Source: a virus
Length of the DNA: 64,000 nucleotides
Reading direction: 5' to 3' (one strand)
IMG/VR virus record: IMGVR_UViG_3300029393_000004
The translations under genes and the position numbers were made by a program. Shown here piece after piece: positions 909 through 50,422 of this stretch (its first letter is position 1; every line of letters starts with the position of its first letter). Under the pieces are notes generated by a model. That model saw only the letters and a program-made list of their open reading frames with translations, was not told where the DNA came from and searched no databases.

Positions 909-1331
909 TTATGTCAAAGACCATTGAGTGACTAAGCGGTTATTCTTGCTACTCCAAATTCGTGCGTTGCCCCACGCTTCATCAAGATGAAAATCTGGCA
1001 GATCATCTCTACTGCCCTTCAAGACAATTTCTCCGCCCTCACCATTGTATCTGTTAACGACAATTAACTGAGTTTGCGTCTCGCCATTTAAGTACGTGGT
1101 GCCGTTAATCGTGAAGTTGGAATTTACTCTACCCGCTCCGTTTATCCAAGTTGTTCCGTTTACTGATAAATCTTTTTGGGCGACAGTCGGGCCATTAAAC
1201 CAAGCTGTTCCAACAACTGATAAATCATCGGAAATTGAAACTTGTTTAAACGAAACTACCCCCCCCACTTCAGCTTTCTTTTCGAGTGAGGTTTTGATTA
1301 AGTCGATACAGTCTTTTAAAGTCTTTGTCAT
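909..1331 (-). CDS. tail fiber-like protein (NGTT repeats); contains an in-frame G8 homopolymer
   Basis: 140-aa ORF with SVNGTTWINGAGRVNSNFTINGTTYLNGETQ repeats. The C8 run at about 1259-1266 (plus strand) encodes VGGV in frame. Confidence 0.55.
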   Translation of the reverse strand: MTKTLKDCIDLIKTSLEKKAEVGGVVSFKQVSISDDLSVVGTAWFNGPTVAQKDLSVNGTTWINGAGRVNSNFTINGTTYLNGETQTQLIVVNRYNGEGGEIVLKGSRDDLPDFHLDEAWGNARIWSSKNNRLVTQWSLT

Positions 1332-1345
1332 TTACCAAAAATTCA

Positions 1346-1797
1346 TTATGCTGTTCGTTTCCAACAGTAAGTAACTACATAGGGCGGAAGGTTGTTATGA
1401 GGTTGGTCATTGCCGAAACTCCAAACATAGCCCCATTGGGTGGTTGATCCTTCAACCGTTGATGGAGCTGGTTGTAAACTCAAACCGCTTCTTGAGGTTT
1501 CTTTCACTATGCCTGTTCGGTAATTTCCGTGATAAGAAGGCACAGCCATAAACAACTCGCCTTGGGTCTTGGGCAATTCCGCTTGAGTTAATTTATGAGT
1601 CGCTTCGCCACCCGTTTGCCCTTGTTGATAGGTATCTCCTGCGGTCAGAATGAACCTATCTTTTATTTGTACCCATGTTCCGCCGAAAATTTCACTTGGG
1701 GGGGGGTAGATACATCAGAAAAGTAATAACTACCCACTGGGTGGGCTTCTAACTTCGCTTTCTGAATCGCTTTTTCTAATAGTTGTTCTAAATTCAT
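1346..1797 (-). CDS. phage tail collar domain protein, interrupted by a frameshift at a C9 (coding-strand) homopolymer
   Basis: ATG at about 1797 directly follows the upstream stop. The N-terminal frame (MNLEQLLEKAIQKAKLEAHPVGSYYFSDVSTPP...) stops shortly after the 9-nt tract. The downstream frame (ORF 1346..1576, track start TTG) encodes the collar core: ...GTWVQIKDRFILTAGDTYQQGQTGGEATHKLTQAEL...HNNLPPY...WKRTA. A tract of 10 would fuse the two into a 151-aa protein. Confidence 0.6.
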
Positions 1798-2279
1798 TTA
1801 CGCTGTTCTTCGCCAAATGTATGCGCTTCTGTAAGGCTGTAGGTTGTTATGAGCTTGATTTCCGCCAGTGTTATCTGTGTTAATTCTGTTAGAGCCAACA
1901 ATCCATCCGTTTTGAGTGCTATTGGCGGCATAACCTGCTCGTCCTGATTTATTGTCAGGGAGCGTTACCATCGCTCCGTAAGTGTTCTTCCAACCATCGG
2001 TTCCCGAGCCGTTAATATTTTGACCGTGAAGATGTGCGGGCATTTCATTAACACTCAGTTTATGTGTCGCTTCCCCGCCCTCACTACCTACTGGATAAGT
2101 TGAGTTTGCTCCGAGTAAAACTCTACCTTCGAGTTTAACCCAAGTACTTACCCCCCCCCAAGTCCAAGAATTTCAGCAGGATTTCTATCTTCTTCGGTAA
2201 TGAAGTAACTACCTACTGGATGTGCTTTTAATACTGCAACCTGACCTGCTTTTTCAATTAACTCTTTAATCGTTGCCAT
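1798..2279 (-). CDS. phage tail collar domain protein (paralog), interrupted at a G9 (coding-strand) homopolymer
   Basis: ATG at about 2279 (MATIKELIEKAGQVAVLKAHPVGSYFITEEDRNPAEILGLGGG). The 9-G tract is followed immediately by TAA in this frame. The downstream frame holds GGEATHKLSVNEMPAHLHG...HNNLQPY...WRRTA (ORF 1798..2043). A 10-G tract would give a 161-aa collar protein. Confidence 0.6.
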
Positions 2280-2783
2280 TTAGCTACCTGCTTCTGTTTC
2301 GGTTTCGGCACCAGTTTCTTCGCCTAAAGCAGATTCAAGACTTGCGTAAGCCTCGTCAATCTGAGTCTGGAAGTCGTTCTTAGTCAAGTAAGTAGAAGTT
2401 GCTTCTGTCTTCTTCACATAGTTAGCTTCAACATCTGCTTTAAAAGCCTCGAACGCTGTTTTTAGCGCTTGAAATTCACTTTCATCAGCTTTCGTTTGAA
2501 GAACAACCTCATTAACCTCATCAAACGCTTCTACAATCGCTTCACCGAGTTCGATGATGTCGTTATCAAGACTCTCAAGAATATCAACCCAAACACCCTG
2601 TCTGCGCTGAAATAAGCGCTGTAGGTCTGATCTGAAGCAAAGCATTCCCTCTTTCAGATTTTCAGTGGGAAATACAATGCCAGCGCTACACGTAATGCTC
2701 GCTTCGTCATTGTGCAAAATTAACGGCAACGAGTCTTTTAACGGTGTCGTTAATTGAATTTCTTTATAACCTTGTGCCGCCAT
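2280..2783 (-). CDS. hypothetical acidic protein in the tail fiber module (possible fiber assembly protein)
   Basis: 167-aa ORF, translationally coupled to neighbouring genes. Confidence 0.4.
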   Translation of the reverse strand: MAAQGYKEIQLTTPLKDSLPLILHNDEASITCSAGIVFPTENLKEGMLCFRSDLQRLFQRRQGVWVDILESLDNDIIELGEAIVEAFDEVNEVVLQTKADESEFQALKTAFEAFKADVEANYVKKTEATSTYLTKNDFQTQIDEAYASLESALGEETGAETETEAGS

Positions 2784-3633
2784 TTTCTACCTGTACTTTC
2801 TTGGGCCTGCCACGTTTTATATAGGTATTTGCCCACTTAACTTTTGCCCAAACGCCCTCATGGTTTTCGGAATAGTAATAAGTAGAAGAGCCGTTAATTG
2901 AGCCGTTCTGAAGATATTTTTCCCACGCTTCAATCTTGTAAAACTCAATGGGAGACAATTCGCTCAAAAGTTTTAATTCTTTCTTGTTTGCGAAAATGCA
3001 TGGCGTGCATCCAACACGAGCAAATCCCATTGCATACAGCGGATTGGCTTTAATTCCGCTATCTTCAATCTTTCTAAAAACATCTTCGACCGTCCAACTT
3101 AAAATCGGTCTCACATCCCAAGCTTGAGCACCCGTTTTTTTATTTTCGAGTCTCAACTCTCTTTCGGGATATTTTGCACGTTTTATAGATTCATCGGCTC
3201 TGACACCCGTCCAAACTTCTACAGATTCTCCATTTTCAAGAAACTGAGCAATAAAGTCATTTGCGGGTTTTTGTTTTAATTCTTTTGTACAAAATCTACT
3301 AGTAAAGCCAGGAAATCTACCGTTGACCAAGCAAAGGTCTAAAAATGCACTACCTGTCGGTCGGATGTGTTTTGCGATTTCAGGATGGTCTTTGAGTCTT
3401 TCCGCTTTTCTTTTCAGCTTTTCCGTACTGTCTAATTTCAGTCTTACGATTTTTGAAAAACCTTTTGATTGAAAATAGTCATCAAGGTATTCCAAGTATT
3501 CATAAGTTTTGTAGTGCTCGTTACCTGTATCGCAGAAAATGAAGATTACATTCTCGGGTCTATTCTGCTCCATTGCAAGCAGAGCAACGGCCGTGCTGTC
3601 TTTTCCGCCAGATACTGATATTATTTTTCTCAT
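2764..3633 (-). CDS. PAPS reductase family PP-loop protein (phosphoadenosine phosphosulfate reductase / DndC-like)
   Basis: SVSGGKDS PP-loop near the N-terminus. FCDTGNEHYKTYEYL resembles the CysH DTG...ETY region. 289 aa. Confidence 0.7.
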   Translation of the reverse strand: MRKIISVSGGKDSTAVALLAMEQNRPENVIFIFCDTGNEHYKTYEYLEYLDDYFQSKGFSKIVRLKLDSTEKLKRKAERLKDHPEIAKHIRPTGSAFLDLCLVNGRFPGFTSRFCTKELKQKPANDFIAQFLENGESVEVWTGVRADESIKRAKYPERELRLENKKTGAQAWDVRPILSWTVEDVFRKIEDSGIKANPLYAMGFARVGCTPCIFANKKELKLLSELSPIEFYKIEAWEKYLQNGSINGSSTYYYSENHEGVWAKVKWANTYIKRGRPKKVQVENGGTRL

Positions 3634-4665
3634 TTAGTATCCCGCCGCCGTCCAAGTGAACGTGCCTGTAGTTTTGTTTCCTTCAACGTCGTAGAGCATC
3701 ACGGTAAAGCCAGTTGTGCTGACATTACTTACAATCGGACGAATGGCTTCTAAAGCATTTCCGCCACGCATTGTTACCGTCACTTCGGGAGCAACGCTGA
3801 ATTCTCTTGAGAAGTGAACGGTTGCGCCGTAATTCTTATCCGTAACGCTTGTAGAGCCTCGGTCATAAACGTCATCAACGTCAATAGCCACATCAATTTG
3901 CTCAACTAATGCTCGGTCAGCCGTTGTAGCCTCTAAAGCCAATCTGAAGAGCGCTTTCTGATATTCGTAGTCACCAGTGATGAATTCCCTAAATGTCGTA
4001 TATCCGACATGACGACCGCCGTTGCGCATGAACTTATCCAGACTTTCTTTCGTCCAAATCCCTTCTTGAAAGAACAAATCGGAAATAACACCTCGGGCTA
4101 CTTCCTTAATCGCATCATAGAAATTGAGTGACTGTGATTTAAATACGCCAATCTCTTTCTCGACCGTTGTCTCTGCAACCGTGTAGTTCTCTGAGTGATT
4201 TCTAATCCAAGCGATCTGTCGATCACATTGATCGAGCAGTTGCAATGCCTCAAAGACCATGTGCTCCGCATCTTTTGCCAAATGTTCAGCAAAAAAGATT
4301 TTATCTTCGACATTTTTATTTATGTCTTTCTCAGTTTTCGTCTCTTCAACGACAAAAAGCTCCTCAAACTCTTTTACTAGAACTAAAAGAGTATTCAGAG
4401 TGTATTCAAACTCGATTGCTTCGCTAAACGGAACATGAATTTGTGCTGATTTGGCTTCTAAGAAAGTCAGCAGTTCTTTGAGATTGCTTTCAATGTCAAA
4501 ACGAAACGTTTTGCTTACCGCAAGGGCTTCATCTATTGATGCAGTGTAGTTTGTGGGATGATGCCAGAGCCAGTCTCGCTGATCATCCCAAGTCCCTAAG
4601 CCCGAATTTTCGCTAATCCATGTTCTGTATCTTGTCGAAGCAGGAGATACAACAATGGTTGTCAT
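3634..4665 (-). CDS. tail fiber / receptor-binding protein with a C-terminal H-type lectin domain
   Basis: The C-terminal ~65 aa (TVHFSREFSVAPEVTVTMRGG...SNVSTTGFTVMLYDVEG...TFTWTAAGY) matches the H-type lectin pattern (F..F...P.V......sNVt..GF.v......W.A.G). Confidence 0.55.
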   Translation of the reverse strand: MTTIVVSPASTRYRTWISENSGLGTWDDQRDWLWHHPTNYTASIDEALAVSKTFRFDIESNLKELLTFLEAKSAQIHVPFSEAIEFEYTLNTLLVLVKEFEELFVVEETKTEKDINKNVEDKIFFAEHLAKDAEHMVFEALQLLDQCDRQIAWIRNHSENYTVAETTVEKEIGVFKSQSLNFYDAIKEVARGVISDLFFQEGIWTKESLDKFMRNGGRHVGYTTFREFITGDYEYQKALFRLALEATTADRALVEQIDVAIDVDDVYDRGSTSVTDKNYGATVHFSREFSVAPEVTVTMRGGNALEAIRPIVSNVSTTGFTVMLYDVEGNKTTGTFTWTAAGY

Positions 4666-5126
4666 TAGCTAGACGGCTGAGACATTGTGAAAGTAAATGT
4701 CATCTTAAGGGTATCGTCATCGCCCTTATTGATAACTGGGAACACAACTCGGTCAATCAAAATGCCGTCAGTTTCCGCATTCTGCACACTTGCTTCGGTC
4801 AATGCGCCTGTGGCTTCGCCCTTGTTGAATGTCGTCTCAAAAGTAAATGTCTTTGTGCCAGCAGTATGAGCGTATGTGGCTGCTTTCGCCATTAACTGAG
4901 TTTGAAGAGCTGTCTGATCAACAGAAACGGCAGTAGTGCTTGTACCTACAGCGATGTAGCTCATAACAGCAGGACGAGCAGAAGCGTTACCAATAGCGTC
5001 GGCAACGAAATCGAAACCGACATCAAGAATGGCATTGTGCTTATGAACAACTTCGTAGGAACCGTCTGCTTTGTGAAGTTCGGCTGTAAGAGAGCCTACT
5101 AATTTGAAGGTGTCAGATTTAATCAT
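4665..5126 (-). CDS. hypothetical tail-associated protein
   Basis: 153-aa ORF, start-stop coupled to gpJ and the lectin protein. Confidence 0.4.
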   Translation of the reverse strand: MIKSDTFKLVGSLTAELHKADGSYEVVHKHNAILDVGFDFVADAIGNASARPAVMSYIAVGTSTTAVSVDQTALQTQLMAKAATYAHTAGTKTFTFETTFNKGEATGALTEASVQNAETDGILIDRVVFPVINKGDDDTLKMTFTFTMSQPSS

Positions 5127-5189: not shown

Positions 5190-8100
5190 TTAAGCATTCC
5201 CCACTGACAATAGTTTTATTTGACCCTGCGGAAATGCGGGGGTCGTTTTGAACTCAACCTGCTTGCCAAGAATGCCGTAACCAAAGCCGCGAGTGACGTT
5301 TGTTTGATAGAACGCAATACAGAAGTAATCATCTGCAAGAAACTCAGTTTCAAAAGAGATGTCTTTCCCGTCACTGCAAGCAAGATTTAATGTCTTTTCT
5401 TCCGTGTTGTAGTAAATCTTGTACCAGCCAGCGCCGTCTTGAGTCTGCATTATCAGAATCTCAGCACACTTATTCCGCCCCTGATCTTTTGCCTTAAACC
5501 AAAAACTGAATTTAAAGTGCTCTGGCACATCAACTAACTGCCACTTAGCGCTTGTGATCAAATTCATGGTCATTCCAAGAGCATATCGGGCAGGTTCATA
5601 ATGCGCTTGAGCTGATATTGCCTGCTTGCCCGAAAGCGTATCAGTTGTGTTTTCAAGTGACATTCCCTCAATGTCTGAAGAGCCTAAACCGTACTCAAGA
5701 GCAATCTGCTTATAAGCAACGATACCGTCTTGGTCTCCTTCTAAGTTCCAAGCTCGCTCTGCGCCAGGAGCTTCAAAGTCGCACGTTAAATCTTCCCAAG
5801 TGGTTGTATCTTCACCTGTGCAAGCAATCGTTGTGACAGAGGTTGAGAAGGAGTTATGCGCATAATGCTTCTTGAAGAGATCAACAGGGATGATGTACTC
5901 CGAACGCTTTCTATCATCATCCATGACAAGATCGTCACCTCGATCAGACATATACACTCGGTGATTAGAGAAGCCTAATCCACGTTCGTGCATTTCGATG
6001 ATGATGTTCTTATCTTTGTCGTTGGTTACACCGATTTCATACCAGTCAGCAGACTCAGAATAAATTCCAGGCATACAGACTGCTTTAATCCAGAATTTTC
6101 TTCTTGTCTGTGCGCCAACCGGAATAGTCGCATGATTGAGTTTTGACTGACAAACAAGCGTAGAAGCCGTCCAGTTAATACCTTCTCGGATTTCATAGAA
6201 AGTAATATCTGTTTCGGGGTTACTATCCCACTTCAGCTCAAGACGCTCATTAGAACGTACAACTTGGAAGTTCTCAGGTGTAATCGGAGCGTGAAGATCA
6301 AGTCTTGTCGTTGTAACGTGCTTAGAGAGACTGCCGTCAGAGTTAATCGCCCGAATATGGTAGTAATAAATGCCCGCTTTATCCTGATAGTGAACAAACG
6401 AGTTACCTGCAAAGTTCGTAATAATCGCTTCGCCAGCGTCCCAAGAATCACCAATTCTGATTTCATAACCGAGCGCGCCTTCAACGGGTGTCCAGTCAAG
6501 CTGTAAGTAAGTTGAGCGCTTAGTAATCGTGAAGTCTTGAATATCGTCAGGAGACGGTAAAGAATCTTCTGCGTCATAATAGGTCTCTAGCTCAGTAGAA
6601 AGTGTACCAAGTACGCCCTTGGCGTAAATCTTGATGTGATAAAGGCCATTCTGTGCGTTAGAGATCGTGTAGTAAGGAGAATTAACTTCAACAGAAGTCC
6701 ATTCGTCTCCGTTGCCGTCCTTGTCTTCCGTTCGATACTCGACAACCCAAGAAGCATTGTTCTTACCAGCCGTCCAAGAAAGCTCAAGATTACCTGTTCT
6801 AATACCTGTAGCGGACTTAGAGATGGAAACCGAGATATTGAGGTTATTGGGTTTGCCAACATCATACGGGTCAATTTCTGAAGTATTGGGAAGCTGAATT
6901 TCCCAACCCTTTTCAATCAGATCATATTTGCCTTTGTTGTAGCTAATACAATCAATATTGAAAGTGCCCTTATCTTCGCCCTGAGCAATGTTTACAACAC
7001 GTGCAATCTGAGGTACGAGATTTTCTTCTTCGATAATCCAAATTGCATAGTCAACGGGAAGCTCGGGCAAAGGTTCGTCCCAAAAGACCTCGGCTCTTGG
7101 CTCATCATCAGAGATTTTCAGTGTTCTCGTGACGAATGTGTTGTCAGGCATCCGAATTGAAATTTTCGGATTGGCTTCACTCTTTAACTGCGTTACTGCG
7201 TCAAGAACGGCTGAAGTAGTTGTGTAAGACTTTAAGCGTCCGCCAAGTCTTCTGCCTGCATGATAGGGGTCGTGAATCTTAATAATGTCGCCTGGAAGCA
7301 CTAAAGCGGCATCCAAACCGACGGTAAACGAGATCATGTCGGATTCATACTGCTCAGTGTAGAGAATCCACTTGCCAGCACGAATTGCTTGAGCACGAGA
7401 AGTACAGCCGAAAAGTGTTAACTCAGACTGTCTAACGCCCCATTTTTCAATAAGCTCTCGGTCTTCAACGTACTCTACAACCTGCTTGTAGTTTTGATCA
7501 GGGTCGTTCCAAGTGATTAAAGCAACTGAGTGATGCTCGTTTCTGGAAGAGCCTGCGTAACGAAACTCTCCGTTGACAACATTGGCTTGAGTGAAAAGAA
7601 CCGACGGCTCAGTGGGTTTGTCGCACGTGAAGTTGGCCTGACCCATTGCCCAATAGGTCATACCTCTGAAAACAGAAGTAATGGAGTTGATTAACTCATA
7701 GGCTTCAGAACGCTCGGTAACCTGAGTGTTAATTGAGAACCGTTTTTCTTTCTTACCTAAGCCGTCATCAACTAATTCATCACAATAACGACCGATCTCA
7801 TAGAGCTTGGATTTATTGATCTGTTCAGGCTTAATGAATTCGCCCAAACCCCAACGGGTATTAGTCAGCAAACCATAGAGAATCCAAGCGGGATTGTCAG
7901 TAACCTCCATCTTGAAGGTGCCGTCCCAAATTCCGTTATAAGTATTGGTCTTTTTGTCATAGTTGCTCGGAACTTGCAGAATCAAGCCGTCAACAATGTA
8001 CGAACGAGTCGGAATTGAAGAAAGGTTCTCGGCCGTTGCAGAGATACCAATAATCGCTGAGTTTGGATAATTCAACTTCGTTTCTGAAATCAGAAACATC

Positions 8101-8732
8101 GTTGTGAAACTCAGTGCGGCCACGTAGTCGTCATCCGCTTCGGGAGATAACTTTGTCAGACGAATTAACCAGCGCTCGGGCGCTTTGCCCTTAGAGTCCC
8201 GCTGAGGGAGGTTAAACGTGTAGCTTCTTTGATACTGAGAAGAAGTTTTGCCTTCAACTTTTTGCGTGCCGTAATCAACAAAGTCATCGTTATTGATGGC
8301 AATTTCAAATTTAAACTCAATAGAGGTCTTTTTTAAGCCATTATCGACTCTGTAGAGATAAGGAATGGTGATACCGCAACGAACTTTGTCAGCGATTGTC
8401 TCTGTAATTGATCGAACAACGGGGAAGCCGTTTTTAACTTCCGCCCCGACCTCAATGGGGATAACGGTATTCTCGTATCCCTGCATCATGTCTTGATAAG
8501 GCGTGCCTCTAGCTTCTTTTACATAAACATTGTCATAGTTAAAAGAGCCTGTTTGGTTCTGAAGAGGTACGTCATCAAAATAAATGGACTTTGCGCCGTC
8601 AACAAGACCTCCGATCTGACCTTCGGAGATTAAGTCCAAGACTTGAAGCGAGGCAATCGAGAAAAGAGTGTTCTTGTCGTTTGACTGTTTGCTACCTTTA
8701 CTACCACCAGCACCAGCTACATAATTTTTCAT
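5190..8732 (-). CDS. J: host specificity / central tail fiber protein, lambda gpJ family, with FN3 repeats
   Basis: 1180 aa. The N-terminus (MKNYVAGAGGSKGSKQ...LFSIASLQVLDLISEGQIGGLVDG) is gpJ-like. Several fibronectin-III-like repeats are present. It is positioned after the I/K/L/M genes. Confidence 0.85.
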   Translation of the reverse strand: MKNYVAGAGGSKGSKQSNDKNTLFSIASLQVLDLISEGQIGGLVDGAKSIYFDDVPLQNQTGSFNYDNVYVKEARGTPYQDMMQGYENTVIPIEVGAEVKNGFPVVRSITETIADKVRCGITIPYLYRVDNGLKKTSIEFKFEIAINNDDFVDYGTQKVEGKTSSQYQRSYTFNLPQRDSKGKAPERWLIRLTKLSPEADDDYVAALSFTTMFLISETKLNYPNSAIIGISATAENLSSIPTRSYIVDGLILQVPSNYDKKTNTYNGIWDGTFKMEVTDNPAWILYGLLTNTRWGLGEFIKPEQINKSKLYEIGRYCDELVDDGLGKKEKRFSINTQVTERSEAYELINSITSVFRGMTYWAMGQANFTCDKPTEPSVLFTQANVVNGEFRYAGSSRNEHHSVALITWNDPDQNYKQVVEYVEDRELIEKWGVRQSELTLFGCTSRAQAIRAGKWILYTEQYESDMISFTVGLDAALVLPGDIIKIHDPYHAGRRLGGRLKSYTTTSAVLDAVTQLKSEANPKISIRMPDNTFVTRTLKISDDEPRAEVFWDEPLPELPVDYAIWIIEEENLVPQIARVVNIAQGEDKGTFNIDCISYNKGKYDLIEKGWEIQLPNTSEIDPYDVGKPNNLNISVSISKSATGIRTGNLELSWTAGKNNASWVVEYRTEDKDGNGDEWTSVEVNSPYYTISNAQNGLYHIKIYAKGVLGTLSTELETYYDAEDSLPSPDDIQDFTITKRSTYLQLDWTPVEGALGYEIRIGDSWDAGEAIITNFAGNSFVHYQDKAGIYYYHIRAINSDGSLSKHVTTTRLDLHAPITPENFQVVRSNERLELKWDSNPETDITFYEIREGINWTASTLVCQSKLNHATIPVGAQTRRKFWIKAVCMPGIYSESADWYEIGVTNDKDKNIIIEMHERGLGFSNHRVYMSDRGDDLVMDDDRKRSEYIIPVDLFKKHYAHNSFSTSVTTIACTGEDTTTWEDLTCDFEAPGAERAWNLEGDQDGIVAYKQIALEYGLGSSDIEGMSLENTTDTLSGKQAISAQAHYEPARYALGMTMNLITSAKWQLVDVPEHFKFSFWFKAKDQGRNKCAEILIMQTQDGAGWYKIYYNTEEKTLNLACSDGKDISFETEFLADDYFCIAFYQTNVTRGFGYGILGKQVEFKTTPAFPQGQIKLLSVGNA

Positions 8733-17100: not shown

Positions 17101-17224
17101 TTTCGGCATTATTAAACGCTTGCTCAACCTCATGTATTTTGCGCTTAGTTGCGTCAGCGTTTCTAAGAAACCGAGAGGTATCTAAACTTAAACTAACCGA
17201 AAGGGAGTCAATTATGCCAGTCAT
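11174..17224 (-). CDS. H: tail tape measure protein (2016 aa)
   Basis: Very long, coiled-coil and Gly-rich ORF between the chaperone genes and gpM. Confidence 0.85.
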   Translation of the reverse strand: MTGIIDSLSVSLSLDTSRFLRNADATKRKIHEVEQAFNNAEIASQRTGKAMADSFKPLDAAQNKLAKTLHGNLDKTWNKIVGGVEKDFTSGKYKFTPKFIKAFDGFCKQIEVLDKLGSSLAKGHNRISLSTAKSISRGKGFGKEFKQIDQRARDALQVYGEVSEHLTAARKLQNKIIPELQQKMTSILRSSPKGRKKGPEYYQVRKDLAAANKALQSNFSYVEQRKAENAEQYSLGAKLARASRGVVRVKDRFVAKDSERLNFINLATAANLHEENTKSRSLADKAKLDEKKRRDQETQIKRSARSAERDAKRWDRETTRLMGIRGGGLETALMLGGGAFLGERMLRGVFDSVERLQKIESQVDTWNLSKKDRYQFDLIADKILQKNSLLSRAEATDATLAGMTSMGHFDPEALKKVLPTAVQYAQGSKMLGYTTDSISDVIKNFFGVVEARQQTLDPDAMLKTFKTLWQIENVTGGKVTVKDFETILRNLGPGAPLMSDEGLLNLVAFAEQIKVAGHGGGGGAGAGISTVGNLIKMLQLTASGKPTSINAKKMMSELFNIGADGKIYRLLDTESGEVATQGGITFTQAMSDFQNIAQQTIEVLNGADKEIAKAGFQDKQGMWDNPVKTMGAMRDAFLRGTYLDRNGKFDEKKARRFYRDDQIDAKNGRLKNVTTLDEQKAITSLIAQMGFQHRTTTAMATFMNPFFLKRSQYTIDSSKRQMNPMEWLEEQYAKGNWGVASQEFTVAMTRLGESMKPLVAEFADITRSVSKFITAIAEFNENHPMLAMMNGLLVTITGMVPALGLAALGFKRLHEAAVADLQLKGVMKRPSEMDGVIPSSYTMAHAKSPNKPLIPTPLNSKLFPVGYFDKAYQPVSGFCDKITTKFTKTFVSVGSIVGKIGGLFLKMLPVVGTAFLAFDLASIVAGWFYDINITVDGETKKLGDIIEERLKELKDKLGMGKAQILSEAQKPYVQMVQTQNNNAQLLQGAKAVLQTLKSEGYQGQYSDDIVDEFGNQHSGMGVLSQLKAQGLLNENAFTKEGLFNVDTLSLTQAIEQLTKTVETNNKTLAIAQGKTGKGIRTDEQGRALPDQSVASKANDKIAEMMSVYQKIYEQALAKLQKADFETDFFGYKSKDGNRRKYKVDNILEHKYQVQHYEALNKEDEARKEAELKRIDDVLEKIYAPEKLAFQSLSKEIKGSEEAIAKFGKMLEALVAKQFKAQGQSEIASSANGVANYSFGLAEGGASGDVSSVMKSVEEGTLNKAKVVSKDGKKFLNAIDPTSSAGNGKPKNGTGTTPSYYVPQNVKFVNSLQATIDENQADLASMLAGQGKKGMEYAKAFVLAKLLNGGLSLSNKNPQDSPYLKKKGDLSADNVDWNKKDPVTKKTLIELAEMKRLAEQSKLMNQAITKIATETAQAEENYENAAFIFENGGTEKLPSAVTSFDRAVAKALTQIDKSSKQFEQLKAFSLLGQLSVGSSAMLQKAVENRKATLEMRKEREGYGLNSTQASKVVFDREWEENRANMNAEILRQRDIIKATEANKTLNAEAKKQEIDKANKAILDLENSFNDRYAEAQEKWLRDNATAGQQLVLQWTDLSKALDDLQSEMMNGFIDMTEQMLDGNLDSWRDYAYNLLRLIRRQILQGTFAPLLSQITGMMNQGIAGFFGNDVEAMRQKAGYYQAGNIANAMLGNGFYSNFVAGNYFRTPQVNPYDAYYSPYYTHDYSSALMSDDTGAQIGYTGSINDGTAVFASSNAQTSWWNSFTTSFSDGIGGLWNSTKNFFGNFGDNMGKLSDGFLEFCGSPIESLKNAFSSASTAIGQFIMSLSSGSSGSGVGGIISSVVGAVVGGVGASTGGSFGLSGAGFDASAASNANYFAEAGKAAFSGSAWTRFAKGGVMTSNGELDLRKYASGGIANSPQLALFGEGSMPEAYVPLPDGRSIPVSFRGNGTGESVGGNNISIVINVSNTNNGSAETQTADATQAGKDSTDMAKLANRIKTLVRQEIITQSRPGGLLAGA

Positions 17225-17942
17225 TTTTGCTTCTTACTCTTATTATTTTGTCTGCGAATCGTGTTTTTCAGTTCGTTGAACTGAGAGCGATTTAACCTTT
17301 CGCTCATTGGGTCAAATTTAACCTTCTGCGTTTCGCCAATTTGCATTTCAAGGCTTTCACGCAATTTCTTGACCCCTTCTCCTCCCGCCATTCCCGTGGC
17401 TACGGCCACGTGCTGAAGACTGAGGTTTCTGACATCAAACGACGCTTGTATGCGGTCGATATTTGAACTTAATGTCCAAAAAAAACGAATCGGTACAGAA
17501 AGTAACTCTCTATAGCCGATTCCATAAAAGTGCATAACCCGACAAAAGAAGTATCCAAAATCGATACTTTCAATTGTCGGTGGTGTTACTTTCCCTCTGC
17601 TGTCGCCTCTTCAGTAGCGGAAGATTCTTGAGGCTTGACAGAACCTTCTAACTCTTCGTCAGGGATGTCGTTGCGGATAAACCGAACAATCGTACCGAGC
17701 TGTTCAATCGTTGCTCCCATTAGCACGTCTTCAGGTAGATCAGGAATGAATTTGCTAATCAAAGTCGTCATTGCTTTAATCTGATCTTGAAGTGTTTCAA
17801 CGTTTGCGTTTTGCTTTTCAAATTCTGCAATTTCCAAGAACAACTTAACAGTTGTTTCGGAAACTTTGTAAGTCTTGCCGTTCAGCGTAATGGAACGATT
17901 TTCGAAGGGAGCAATGGTGTCAATGTTTAAGAGTTTTGTCAT
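17221..17942 (-). CDS. tail assembly chaperones G and GT; the fusion is made by a -1 programmed frameshift
   Basis: G frame is about 17586..17942 (MTKLLNIDTIAPFENRSITLNGKTYKV...). It ends ...AEGK-TAA with GGGAAAG (the lambda slippery heptamer) immediately before the stop, at about 17589-17595 (plus-strand coordinates). The -1 frame continues through ORF 17221..17535 (T-like segment). Confidence 0.7.
17586..17600 (-). promoter_or_regulatory. -1 programmed ribosomal frameshift site GGGAAAG at the end of the G chaperone ORF
   Basis: The heptamer is identical to the lambda G/T slippery site and lies immediately before the TAA stop. The -1 frame is open through the T-like ORF. Confidence 0.65.
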
Positions 17943-18022
17943 TGTTTTGTGAAAAGGTAGGTTGTTAAAAAATGTGCAGATTGCCCTTTTCTTTCTTCTT
18001 ATCGCAACCTGCACAATAAAAT

Positions 18023-26933: not shown

Positions 26934-28178
26934 TTATCGTGAGTAACCTGCAACATTGAGTTTTCTGATCGGATATTCAATCTCAATCGCATATCCGAGT
27001 GCATCAGCAGAGTGTTCTATGTTTGCCGATTTATCGACTTCTCTTGAACCTTCGATATAAAGCGTCTGCTCAAGAGCGTTAATCAAGTGAGTACATGAAG
27101 GGTCAACGAATAGTCTGATCTTTCCTTCAGCACTCATAAGCATTCTGTTTACTGAGTTAACACGATCTGCAATCGCTGGATGCTGTCTGCGATACTTGAT
27201 ACGACTAAAACCGTGTTCCCTCAAAATATCAATATCAGTTTCACCACGTGCGTGCTGTCTTGCCCCGCCAGCGGGGTCGGGGTAAAGCGTAATTCTGTCT
27301 TGCCAGCGGTAATACTTCTGCTCAATAGCACACGCCATTTCTTCAGTATTGGAAGACACTTTGACAATCTCTCCCACCGCCCACAATTCGCCATTGGATT
27401 GAGGTTGAAGAATGACCGAAGACATCGGGTCAATATTGAAGTCCATACCAATCCAGATAGGCAATCCTGGATTAAATGGACAACTTTTGATATGTACCGC
27501 TCGTGAGAACGGGTAATACACACGACCAGCCATGTTTTCAAAAGCCGCTTCAAATTCAGCTCGATATGACTTTTCGTCCATATCCCGTTTGGCCGCTTCT
27601 AACTCGGCTTTGGGGATAAATGGGGAGGTAGATGTTGGGAATTGCCATGATTTCCAGTCAGGAGAACCTCCAGGTTGACCCAATTTATACACTTTATACA
27701 ATTGGTTGAAGGCCTTCGGACTGCCGATAAAGAGCGCCCAACCTTTCTTATCTGCTAATGTTGGTCGAAGAACTTGAGTCCAAGTCTCTTCTTTAATATC
27801 TTGGTACTCATCCAGAATCAAGCCGTGTAAGCCAACACCACGAAGTGAGTCAGCTTTATCAGCGCCCTTCAATTCAATTCTTGAGCCATTAACAAGCTCG
27901 ACCGTCATGTTGGTTTCGTTCAGACGGTAAATCCATTCTTTGGGAATAGCGTCCAATAAATCAGCCCACATGATCTGTTTAGCCATTCGATATGTAGGTG
28001 CAACGTACCAAATCTTCTGATTGGGCTTCGTGGCATGGGAAATCATCTCCATGCGTGACAAAAAGCTCTTTCCCCAGCGTCTTCCTGCCGCCACTACTCT
28101 AAATCTATGATTATCAAGATAAACTTCCATCTGTTTGGGATGTAGAGGAAGAGTAATTCTTCGTCTTTCCTTTGCCAT
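26934..28178 (-). CDS. terL: terminase large subunit
   Basis: Walker A VVAAGRRWGKSFLS and Walker B GLILDEYQD. 414 aa, next to the portal gene. Confidence 0.85.
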   Translation of the reverse strand: MAKERRRITLPLHPKQMEVYLDNHRFRVVAAGRRWGKSFLSRMEMISHATKPNQKIWYVAPTYRMAKQIMWADLLDAIPKEWIYRLNETNMTVELVNGSRIELKGADKADSLRGVGLHGLILDEYQDIKEETWTQVLRPTLADKKGWALFIGSPKAFNQLYKVYKLGQPGGSPDWKSWQFPTSTSPFIPKAELEAAKRDMDEKSYRAEFEAAFENMAGRVYYPFSRAVHIKSCPFNPGLPIWIGMDFNIDPMSSVILQPQSNGELWAVGEIVKVSSNTEEMACAIEQKYYRWQDRITLYPDPAGGARQHARGETDIDILREHGFSRIKYRRQHPAIADRVNSVNRMLMSAEGKIRLFVDPSCTHLINALEQTLYIEGSREVDKSANIEHSADALGYAIEIEYPIRKLNVAGYSR

Positions 28179-49627: not shown

Positions 49628-49703
49628 TCTCCGATAGCTCAGTTGGTAGAGCGACGGACTGTTAATCCGTGGGTCGTTGGTTCAAGTCCAACTCGGAGAG
49701 CCA
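49628..49703 (+). tRNA. tRNA-Asn (GTT)
   Basis: Cloverleaf found by eye: acceptor TCTCCGA/TCGGAGA, D arm GCTCAGTTGGTAGAGC, anticodon arm ACGGA-CTGTTAA-TCCGT, T arm GTTGGTTCAAGTCCAAC, CCA encoded. Confidence 0.8.
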
Positions 49704-49988
49704 CCAAATTCAGTTTGCTTGTTTGATCTACAAGCAACGAATGCCGTGCTCCAGGGTTTCTGTAGCGGTTCTATTCTTGGTGAACCTTAAACGAAGAAGG
49801 TTATCGCAACTATCCAAAAGCGTTTGCGGAGTTTAAGCCTTTTTACTCTGATTAAGGCTTTGGTGAGGTTAGCCAATTCAACACGGTCTAGCGCTGGGTC
49901 GTGGCGGAAAAATAACAAGGGGTCTGTTAAAGATCGACAGACTCCGCCTCAAAGTCATTTGGCAAACAGATGATTTTGAAGTTTTAAT

Positions 49989-50080
49989 CGCAGTGGTGGC
50001 ATGAGTTGGTCGATGGCGGCGGACTGTAAATCCGTTTCTCTGAGCGAGACGCGTTGGTTCGAATCCAACCCCTGCGACCA
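49989..50080 (+). tRNA. type II (long variable arm) tRNA, anticodon GTA (Tyr-like), with non-canonical pairs
   Basis: Anticodon arm GCGGA-CTGTAAA-TCCGT; variable arm TCTC-TGAGC-GAGA; T arm GTTGGTTCGAATCCAAC; CCA encoded. The acceptor stem has one T/C mismatch and the D stem one G/G mismatch. Total length 92 nt. Confidence 0.5.
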
Positions 50081-50088
50081 AGGTTGTT

Positions 50089-50163
50089 GCGGGTATGGTT
50101 CAACTGGTAGAACAACGGCCTTCCAAGCCGTTGACGAGAGTTCGAGTCTCTCTACCCGCTCCA
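50089..50163 (+). tRNA. tRNA-Gly (TCC)
   Basis: Acceptor GCGGGTA/TACCCGC; anticodon arm ACGGC-CTTCCAA-GCCGT; T arm GAGTTCGAGTCTC; CCA encoded. Confidence 0.8.
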
Positions 50164-50350
50164 CTAGGAGTTGACCTGCACTATCCGAGACATATAGGTC
50201 TCGCAAGGCTTGTGTCTCGGAGTCCGTGTAGGTTTTTGAGGTGGTGTGCAGGTGTGTAGCGAACATCTGTGTAAGGTCTGTCGGTTGGCCACTGACAGTC
50301 CTGTATGACCGGCAACAGGCGCCATTTTGTTGAAGGGAATACGAACGGTC

Positions 50351-50422
50351 GGAGGTAGCTCAGTCGGTAGAGCGGCCTTTAATAAGGGTGTGTCGTGGGT
50401 TCGAGCCCCACCCTCCGACAAT
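50351..50422 (+). tRNA. tRNA-like gene with an aberrant anticodon arm (possible pseudo-tRNA)
   Basis: Acceptor TCGGAGG/CCTCCGA, D arm GCTCAGTCGGTAGAGC and T arm GTGGGTTCGAGCCCCAC are all canonical. The anticodon region GGCCTTTAATAAGGGTGT cannot form a 5-bp stem with a 7-nt loop. Confidence 0.45.

Follow-up and report, generated by a model that had tools for sequence, protein, structure and literature searches.

PolyG tracts in receptor-binding genes are known from the Campylobacter phages of the genus Fletchervirus (Sorensen et al. 2021, via PMC10579305, PMC12633550 and PMC11959909), in which, as these later papers relate, G tracts of 7-11 nt, several to a genome, give rise to on and off subpopulations as a form of bet-hedging; a 2025 review called phase variation of this type 'an exceptional case' (PMC11959909). 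Here we analysed a 64,000-nt (64 kb) stretch of viral DNA, IMG/VR record IMGVR_UViG_3300029393_000004 (hereafter the window), in which three consecutive genes on the minus strand, the paralogous cassettes A and B and the unrelated gene C, each carry a G or C tract close to the start codon. Slipped-strand phase variation of independently switchable, putatively receptor-binding tip genes is the likely explanation of this arrangement.

The locus resembles Fletchervirus in carrying several tracts per genome in predicted receptor-binding genes, and the features found were G/C tracts of at least 7 nt in fibre-type genes, both on and off alleles (26 on, 101 off), and a downstream reading frame that is kept. 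In the accounts cited, Fletchervirus comprises lytic myoviruses of an epsilonproteobacterium with polyG surface genes, whereas the phage studied here is an SSU5-related siphovirus with an integrase gene by the fibre module and probably a betaproteobacterial commensal as host. Compared with those same accounts, the present locus also differs in its tandem stand-alone tips of 150-170 aa with Gp10_C-type domains behind a shared anchor, in the poly-C run of one paralogue, in its mostly off states, and in being known from its sequence. We place it among the Fletchervirus-type phase-variable receptor-binding genes, with tandem stand-alone tips, runs of G as well as of C, default states that are mostly off and the presence of the module in at least one unrelated phage as its distinctive traits.

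Other described systems share single aspects of the locus. The polyG/C contingency loci of Campylobacter jejuni have a modal length of 9 and range from about 7 to 11, G8 mainly gaining and G11 mainly losing bases (Bayliss et al. 2012, PMC3401435); they are chromosomal genes for bacterial surface structures with measured switching rates, whereas here phage genes were read from sequence. In T2/T4 and other lytic phages, runs that are mostly of A and 6-9 nt long, in genes such as agt and rIIA, bear on defence escape (Gomez, Barrick and Waters 2025 preprint, PMC12633550), and there, as proposed here, phage genes shift frame reversibly through homopolymer slippage, which makes the population heterogeneous. 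The same survey found repeats to be under-represented in coliphage tail-fibre genes, the opposite of the concentration of tracts in fibre genes seen here (PMC12633550). Alternative receptor-binding tips are obtained from one genome by the invertible G/C segments of Mu and P1 and by the diversity-generating retroelement of Bordetella phage BPP-1 (cited in PMC10579305); as that citing paper presents them, they switch by site-specific inversion or reverse-transcriptase mutagenesis, unlike the tract slippage proposed here, and no invertase, reverse transcriptase or template repeat was noticed near the locus, no search having been aimed at them. The literature covered, which was incomplete, contained no account of Parasutterella phages or of tracts of this kind in gut prophages.

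Until now, the case for homopolymer phase variation in phage receptor-binding genes has come from a single genus, and a second, unrelated lineage would, if the reading is right, mean that it is not peculiar to Campylobacter. The host range of a gut phage could then vary within a clone. Many human and mouse metagenomes contain this lineage, as does a cultured isolate of Parasutterella muris, and the isolate, because it carries the element, would offer a tractable system. For annotators, rows of 'broken' tail genes with G9 or C9 tracts should not be dropped as pseudogenes or 'corrected'.

Homopolymer tracts in three consecutive genes

The three tracts (Table 1) are the only runs of at least 7 G or C in the whole window, and all of them fall within 1.1 kb in consecutive genes. 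As about 0.38 runs of at least 8 nt would be expected per window under an independent and identically distributed base composition, the tracts are not a product of chance. They are 8-10 nt long in the tip genes and lie about 65-125 nt past each start codon, the poly-C tract of B being located some 15 nt farther upstream than the G tracts. The 167-aa open reading frame (ORF) upstream is joined to A, and A to B, by direct TAA-ATG junctions, and gene C starts 14 nt past B. As found, gene A is limited to an N-terminal ORF of 43 aa (2148..2279) that ends ..ILGLGGG, with a TAA immediately after the tract in the out-of-frame reading, and the remaining domain follows in another frame down to the stop at 1798. 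Gene B likewise begins with an N-terminal ORF of 44 aa (1663..1797) that ends ..STPPQVKFSAEHGYK at a stop 11 codons past its tract. When the run lengths were varied in silico, uninterrupted products were obtained from A with G10 (160 aa) or G7 (159 aa) and from B with C10 (150 aa) or C7 (149 aa), and no intact product from either gene at lengths 8, 9, 11 and 12; gene C was in frame at length 8 and met early stops at lengths 6, 7, 9 and 10. The consensus state of the window is thus A off, B off and C on. The initial annotation of this DNA had given the coordinates and sequences of the three tracts and the TAAATG junctions, all of which proved to be as described; its claim that a 10-nt run restores A and B also held, a 7-nt run doing the same, while its product sizes of 161 and 151 aa are corrected to 160 and 150 aa because the stop codon had been counted.

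Table 1. Positions and descriptions of the tract genes and other features of the window
Feature	Position	Strand	Description
Cassette A	1798..2279	minus	stand-alone Gp10_C-type fibre-tip gene (putative); out of frame in the window
Tract A	2151..2159	minus	G9 on the coding strand (C9 on the plus strand); encodes a Gly run just before the conserved Trp of the domain
Cassette B	1346..1797	minus	paralogous Gp10_C-type tip gene (putative); out of frame in the window
Tract B	1698..1706	minus	C9 on the coding strand (G9 on the plus strand); Pro run at the invariant Pro of the domain
Gene C	909..1331	minus	140 aa; unrelated to A and B; in frame in the window; last of the cluster, followed by a 300-nt gap
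Tract C	1259..1266	minus	G8 on the coding strand (C8 on the plus strand); codons 22-24
Locked-on tract form			GGAGGTGGA
Candidate anchor/shaft gene	2280..2783	minus	167 aa; its TAA abuts the ATG of cassette A
PAPS-reductase-family gene	2764..3633	minus	PF01507, 91 bits; 20-nt overlap with the candidate anchor gene
343-aa protein	3634..4665		H-type lectin match, weak, below cut-off
153-aa protein	4665..5126		tail-tip module
J-like protein	5190..8732		lambda-like tail-tip module
Candidate tail-assembly-chaperone frameshift site, lambda G/GT type	GGGAAAG 17595..17589 (site 17586-17595)	minus	just before the TAA of the 142-aa ORF 17586..18014
Large terminase	26934..28178		
Four tRNA genes	49628-50420	plus	Asn-GTT, Tyr-GTA, Gly-TCC, Ile-AAT

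The interrupted genes were compared with protein families after repair of the frame. Repaired A matched Pfam PF21939 (Gp10_C, named for the C-terminal domain of the baseplate structural protein gp10) over residues 19-159 with 61.7 bits, and repaired B matched it over residues 18-149 with 55 bits, against a gathering cut-off of 27. Both matches spanned the two sides of the run and covered profile positions 5-139 of 139, whereas in the unrepaired sequence the domain is split between two frames; the frameshifts therefore interrupt one coherent domain. No further Pfam family was matched by A or B at E <= 0.1, the 'Phage tail collar' model included, and the tail-collar identity proposed at first is corrected to Gp10_C. 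PHROG matches were to the C-termini of tail and tail-fibre proteins, tblastn aligned repaired A over residues 2-160 without a break with intact tail proteins of many phages (33-40% identity), and phmmer found PDB chain 7z47_I ('Putative structural protein', E = 7e-8) with an alignment unbroken across the tract site. By profile and sequence comparison, the C-terminal domain of T4 gp10 (PDB 2fkk) and 7z47_I belong to the same family, the fold support for 2fkk being weak (probability 0.9); in both the domain is the C-terminal part of a longer protein, whereas here it is a separate ORF preceded by just an ~18-aa helix.

An AlphaFold (AF2) model of the in-frame homologue P0023 had a mean pLDDT of 69.5, with values below 50 in the variable middle, and placed the residues encoded by the tract in a confidently predicted loop that links a short helix to the strand with the conserved Trp. 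The top Foldseek matches of this model were T4 gp10 structures (2fl8, 5iv5, 2fkk), with probabilities of 0.87-0.91, E of about 0.02 and TM of about 0.3; these matches are weak, and the structural route adds little to the profile match. In the tip-domain alignment Pro P34 is invariant, and in B the Gly-Gly of the FGGTW motif is encoded by GGC GGA and not by the run. The domain family and the position of A and B next to the tail-tip genes point to a receptor-binding role. For gene C, the best match was a Bactofilin beta-helix at E = 0.016, below cut-off, which makes the product weakly beta-helix-like; the gene had been labelled a third fibre gene with an in-frame G8, and of this description the in-frame G8 was borne out, the fibre label depending on position and not on homology.

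Tract lengths and selection in related loci

Tracts were then compared in a census of about 40 non-redundant loci from IMG/VR, ENA, Logan, JGI and NCBI, in which every run of at least 6 nt early in a 120-200 aa ORF restorable by a change of run length was scored; the resulting observations are not independent of one another. The 127 tracts had lengths of 6 (2 tracts), 7 (5), 8 (15), 9 (82), 10 (21) and 11 (2). Their mode of 9 (82/127) is that of the C. jejuni contingency loci, whose mutational bias would explain it. In frame were 26 tracts, 53 needed -1 and 48 needed +1. IMG/VR contigs carrying the 343-aa neighbour gene at 61-99% identity held 3-7 G/C runs in the same module, and runs at homologous sites varied in length between these contigs. 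Related loci have 2-6 tandem cassettes with a tract at the same site in each; in one of them (L037), six Gp10_C cassettes abut stop to start, each with the run at the same place.

The length of 9 has different consequences in different cassettes. The cassette with the flanks ..AATTCTATTC / TATTCTAA.. is intact at length 9, and 7 of its 13 copies are in frame; A and B are interrupted at that length, and almost every copy of them is out of frame. Flanks differ among orthologues as well: in cassette A, copies with a GGACTT flank need +1 and those with a GGACT flank -1, and relatives of B have C9 or C10 with a flank shorter by one base and thus another in-frame length. In most relatives the orthologue of gene C has this tract and is out of frame, G6, G7 and G9 being found in L091, L035 and L041, respectively, and one C-type gene has no tract (L037, 12371..12850). 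One-base changes beside the run, together with short and tract-free alleles, suggest that cassettes can be reset or locked. The A tract of a further locus (L077) is a G5.

At closer range, identity among the P. muris isolate and three contigs from mouse-gut metagenomes is 98-99%, and their on/off patterns differ across five or six tracts. Between assemblies of the clone to which the window belongs, 0-5 substitutions were counted over up to 10.6 kb. Pairs stopping short of the array were 100% identical and free of gaps; in the compared pairs that reach into it (the window against L044, L045 and L046, and both L044 and L045 against L046), the number of gaps was the same as the difference in tract length. 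Within this clone, tract A was G9 in 8 of 9 assemblies and G8 in the other, and tract B was C9 in 7 of 9 and C8 in 2. Tract C was the most variable, with lengths of 8, 8, 9, 9, 10, 10 and 10 in seven assemblies, 8 alone being in frame. Contigs often break at the start of the array or inside it, namely within a G8 run (L047), at the last codon of the candidate anchor gene (L048/L086 and L050/L085) and in cassette A (L087); such breaks at the array edge would be expected if samples mix tract lengths or cassette variants.

In-frame alleles of A were also found. Its 90% protein cluster holds fragments of 122, 106 and 81 aa on more than 40 contigs and full-length forms of 159-160 aa on 4 contigs. 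Exact look-ups of the predicted full-length proteins of A (G10, G7) and B (C10, C7) were empty; the in-frame A alleles (P0146, P0149 and P0151, 159-160 aa) are cluster members with differences at 1-5 residues, and for the B variant of the window no in-frame allele was found. At the DNA level, the sequence ..GGACT-G8-TAAG.. of L091 and L092 is in frame, many relatives having G9 instead. To judge by its protein sequence, P0151 (..LGLWGGV..) has probably regained the frame through an additional T ahead of the run.

Selection on the cassettes was evaluated by the Nei-Gojobori method over the codons downstream of the tract, in the restored frame, for pairs of orthologous cassettes. The dN/dS values were 0.02-0.30 (about 0.1) at dS up to 0.5, pairs with both copies out of frame included, and 0.03-0.13 for orthologues of cassette B. 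In nearly every cassette a single tract step restores a protein of 146-171 aa. These results demonstrated that the downstream frames are under strong purifying selection and that the cassettes are therefore not decaying pseudogenes. The tract was kept at one site in paralogues just 35-60% identical, and has two seeds, poly-G at a near-invariant Gly and poly-C at an invariant Pro; in distant Gp10_C genes of other phages no run was found at this site, except for an in-frame G7 at Gly-Gly in L020 and L021. The tract itself thus appears to be selected for.

The arrays also differ in their composition. Cassette number ranges from 2 to 6 per genome (arrays in L034-L047 and L078-L081), one locus has a hybrid cassette with the N-terminus of A on the body of B (L043, 7500-8000), and the A-type cassettes P0023-P0030 are identical in their first ~70 and last ~17 residues around a hypervariable middle; the hybrid, the varying number and the shared ends indicate that tips are shuffled by recombination besides any switching at tracts. 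Beyond this lineage, two contigs (L093/L094, 7001-7962) belong to a different phage with 52% GC, a 3343-aa virion-type protein and its own integrase. There, the anchor position is occupied by a 156-aa gene, and the locus has a Gp10_C tip of 171 aa with an in-frame G10 (7115-7124) as well as a second tip without a run; the protein cluster of the 171-aa tip holds many 104-aa fragments beside forms of 170-171 aa. From these comparisons the switchable module appears common to more than one phage lineage, with at least one unrelated phage among its carriers.

Proposed slipped-strand switching and its alternatives

Slipped-strand phase variation had been proposed when the tracts were first noticed, and is now supported by tracts at the same site in paralogues, length polymorphism from 6 to 11, in-frame alleles, clone indels located at tracts and low dN/dS. 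As envisaged here, the module downstream of a lambda-J-like tip protein would consist of the 167-aa anchor or shaft followed by stand-alone distal tip genes, A and B providing receptor-binding domains of Gp10_C type and C an unrelated small protein. Mispairing during DNA replication would add or drop one base in a G/C tract, and each tip gene would toggle reversibly and independently between a full tip when in frame and a stub of 24-50 aa when out of frame. The prophage or virion population would become a mixture with different tip sets, as a hedge against variation of the host receptor. Tract length would be drawn to 9 and, because of this attraction, the usual state of a cassette would be set by whether 9 is in frame given the phase of its flanks, with A, B and C of the clone usually off; flank phase would decide the default in this way if the mutational bias of C. 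jejuni holds. We infer from these patterns that slippage is the cause of the length changes, that the tips bind receptors and attach to the anchor, and that host range may be affected. A wider version, to which we give about an even chance, is a combinatorial array of up to six tips behind one anchor, each with its own tract and giving up to 2^n virion types, in which the 9-nt attractor and flank changes would set the defaults, the module would be shared by unrelated phages of human and mouse gut Sutterellaceae, and an off state may lower translation of the next cassette and so produce a graded switch.

Several observations weigh against slipped-strand switching as set out here. The in-frame share of the 127 non-independent observations is 20%, below the one third of random phase; cassette A was out of frame in 27 of 27 loci with the two common flanks, and in its own 90% cluster in-frame forms are rare (4 contigs against more than 40 with fragments). 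Persistent off states of this kind could mean that expression is achieved by slippage at the RNA level and not by DNA switching. The tract evidence consists of assembled contigs, and some differences between assemblies could stem from low coverage. The presence of the tips in virions and their binding to receptors are predictions, as is the attachment of a stand-alone tip of 150-160 aa to the anchor, and the host of the human clone is assigned by similarity to P. muris and 'uncultured Parasutterella' records alone.

Recoding at the RNA or ribosome level, in which a fixed 9-nt signal would cause transcriptional slippage or slippage of P-site tRNA-Gly or tRNA-Pro, yielding complete tips from out-of-frame genes, and the DNA length changes would be incidental, would account for the dominance of length 9 (82/127) whether in frame or not, for a cassette A that is almost always G9 and out of frame, and for purifying selection downstream even where both compared copies are out of frame. 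Nine nucleotides approximate the length of the RNA-DNA hybrid, which allows the strands to realign, and P-site slippage is favoured when a stop codon occupies the A site, so that recoding in cassette A could be helped by the TAA right after its run. We nevertheless consider such recoding improbable. There is no single programmed direction, 48 tracts needing +1 and 53 needing -1, and orthologues of a single cassette can call for different directions; in-frame alleles occur and, taken over all tracts, are not rare (26/127); and the 96 nt spanning each tract and its downstream sequence form no unusually stable RNA structure (z = -0.44, -1.29 and -1.60). A programmed frameshift in one direction was accordingly rejected. 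Where this phage needs a programmed frameshift, before the tape-measure gene, it uses the canonical GGGAAAG, and bacterial transcriptional slippage is documented mainly for A/T runs. RNA slippage can coexist with DNA switching as leakiness, giving some low-level expression of off alleles, and as such could explain the persistent G9 in cassette A.

That the cassettes are inactive, either decaying pseudogenes or silent donors for recombination as in gene conversion of the pilS/pilE type, with the tracts as by-products, is very unlikely. A and B are out of frame in every assembly of the clone, the cassettes share near-identical N- and C-terminal ends around a hypervariable middle, and the L043 hybrid and the range of 2-6 cassettes show that recombination occurs; against this stand the dN/dS of about 0.1 downstream, the occurrence of a second disabling mutation in almost no cassette, and a tract site kept in paralogues 35-60% identical and created twice, from G and from C. 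Nor is an always-on expression copy evident, the first cassette past the anchor being itself usually off. Least credible is a sequencing or assembly artefact, by which the true tracts would be 10 or 7 nt long, the genes intact and the homopolymers mis-called. Runs of 9-10 G or C are harder to sequence, several contigs have low coverage (e.g. 1.2x to 7x) and many break at or inside the array; yet the same G9 and C9 recurred in several assemblies made independently of one another, with samples and pipelines that differed (ENA, Logan, JGI), and errors would be needed in both directions about equally and in ~80% of tracts. Within the same 9 kb, the A7/T7 run at 3135-3141 is invariant, no indels occur in the aligned clone sequence beyond the array, and long ORFs elsewhere (1180 and 2016 aa) are intact. 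The systematic under-calling of homopolymers that the initial annotation had allowed for is contradicted by the need for both +1 and -1, the invariant A7/T7 run and the intact long ORFs, and the existence and placement of the tracts would need explaining at any exact length.

Tail-tip neighbourhood, phage and host

Pfam and PHROG searches indicated that the surrounding genes form a lambda-like tail-tip module. The 167-aa protein is 95-100% conserved just upstream of the cassette array in all related loci, and its family matches were all weak (a minor tail protein, phrog_6183, at E = 0.007). The N-terminal region is similar to that of the one-piece anchor and tip fibres P0050 and P0074, and the C-terminal half looks helical by eye. 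In these one-piece relatives of 219-223 aa the N-terminal part is followed by the same tip domain without a run (..FGFGTW..), and because they join the two parts, the 167-aa protein would be the anchor or shaft and A and B its separated tips. A scan of the module for promoters and terminators gave results no better than shuffled sequence. The start of B has no clear Shine-Dalgarno sequence upstream, and its TAAATG abutment of stop and start suggests translational coupling, by which an off state may be polar on the next cassette. The PAPS-reductase-family gene is not present in the relatives L036, L037 and L039, in which the 343-aa gene adjoins the candidate anchor gene directly; judged by this distribution, it behaves as an insertion/deletion 'moron'.

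The window is part of a siphovirus of ~105 kb from the mammalian gut, related to SSU5-like phage-plasmids. Its large terminase shares 58-67% identity with the terminases of SSU5, of 107-113 kb phage-plasmids from Klebsiella and Acinetobacter, and of Pseudomonas phage nickie, and related contigs are 104-107 kb long. By this identity and size it may belong to the SSU5-like group proper; an integrase gene lies next to the fibre module in the clone contigs. The terminase scan did not identify a host, its relatives being at most 67% identical and belonging to assorted Proteobacteria. When the DNA of the locus was searched against a phage collection in near and distant modes no match was obtained, which means that it contains no cultured close relative, and a scan of genome contigs with the 343-aa neighbour gene was likewise without a match. 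The same locus is present in about 40 public contigs from human and mouse gut, and the exact 343-aa and 167-aa proteins occur on many human gut metagenome contigs; the SRR5056xxx runs are human gut metagenomes (PMC13355591, PMC13653608). The lead to a host came from an exact-sequence look-up, in which a truncated 47-aa A-type product was identical to NCBI WP_160334816.1 of P. muris. Further members of the A cluster are named P. muris or 'uncultured Parasutterella sp.', and a contig of a P. muris isolate (WSRP01000009.1, L078; isolate assembly GCA_009767915.1) has the same module. The host is most probably a Parasutterella.

Additional G9 tracts, none of them in the window, were observed between genes in four relatives (L036 14130-14138, L037 14762-14770, L039 14241-14249 and L043 11785-11793). 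These lie ~14 nt upstream of a Shine-Dalgarno-like AAGGAG, and the one in L037 stands ahead of the second gene in a paralogous pair (198 and 237 aa) that lies downstream of a Peptidase_S74 fibre; such tracts may act on expression instead of on the reading frame. At the candidate tail-assembly-chaperone frameshift site of the window, a 104-aa ORF (17221..17535, minus strand), upstream of the 2016-aa tape-measure gene, continues in the -1 frame past GGGAAAG. Among the four tRNA genes, the Ile anticodon AAT is unusual for bacteria, and the tRNA-Gly(UCC), which reads GGA and GGG, could, as a speculation, aid the translation of GGG-GGG-GGG runs.

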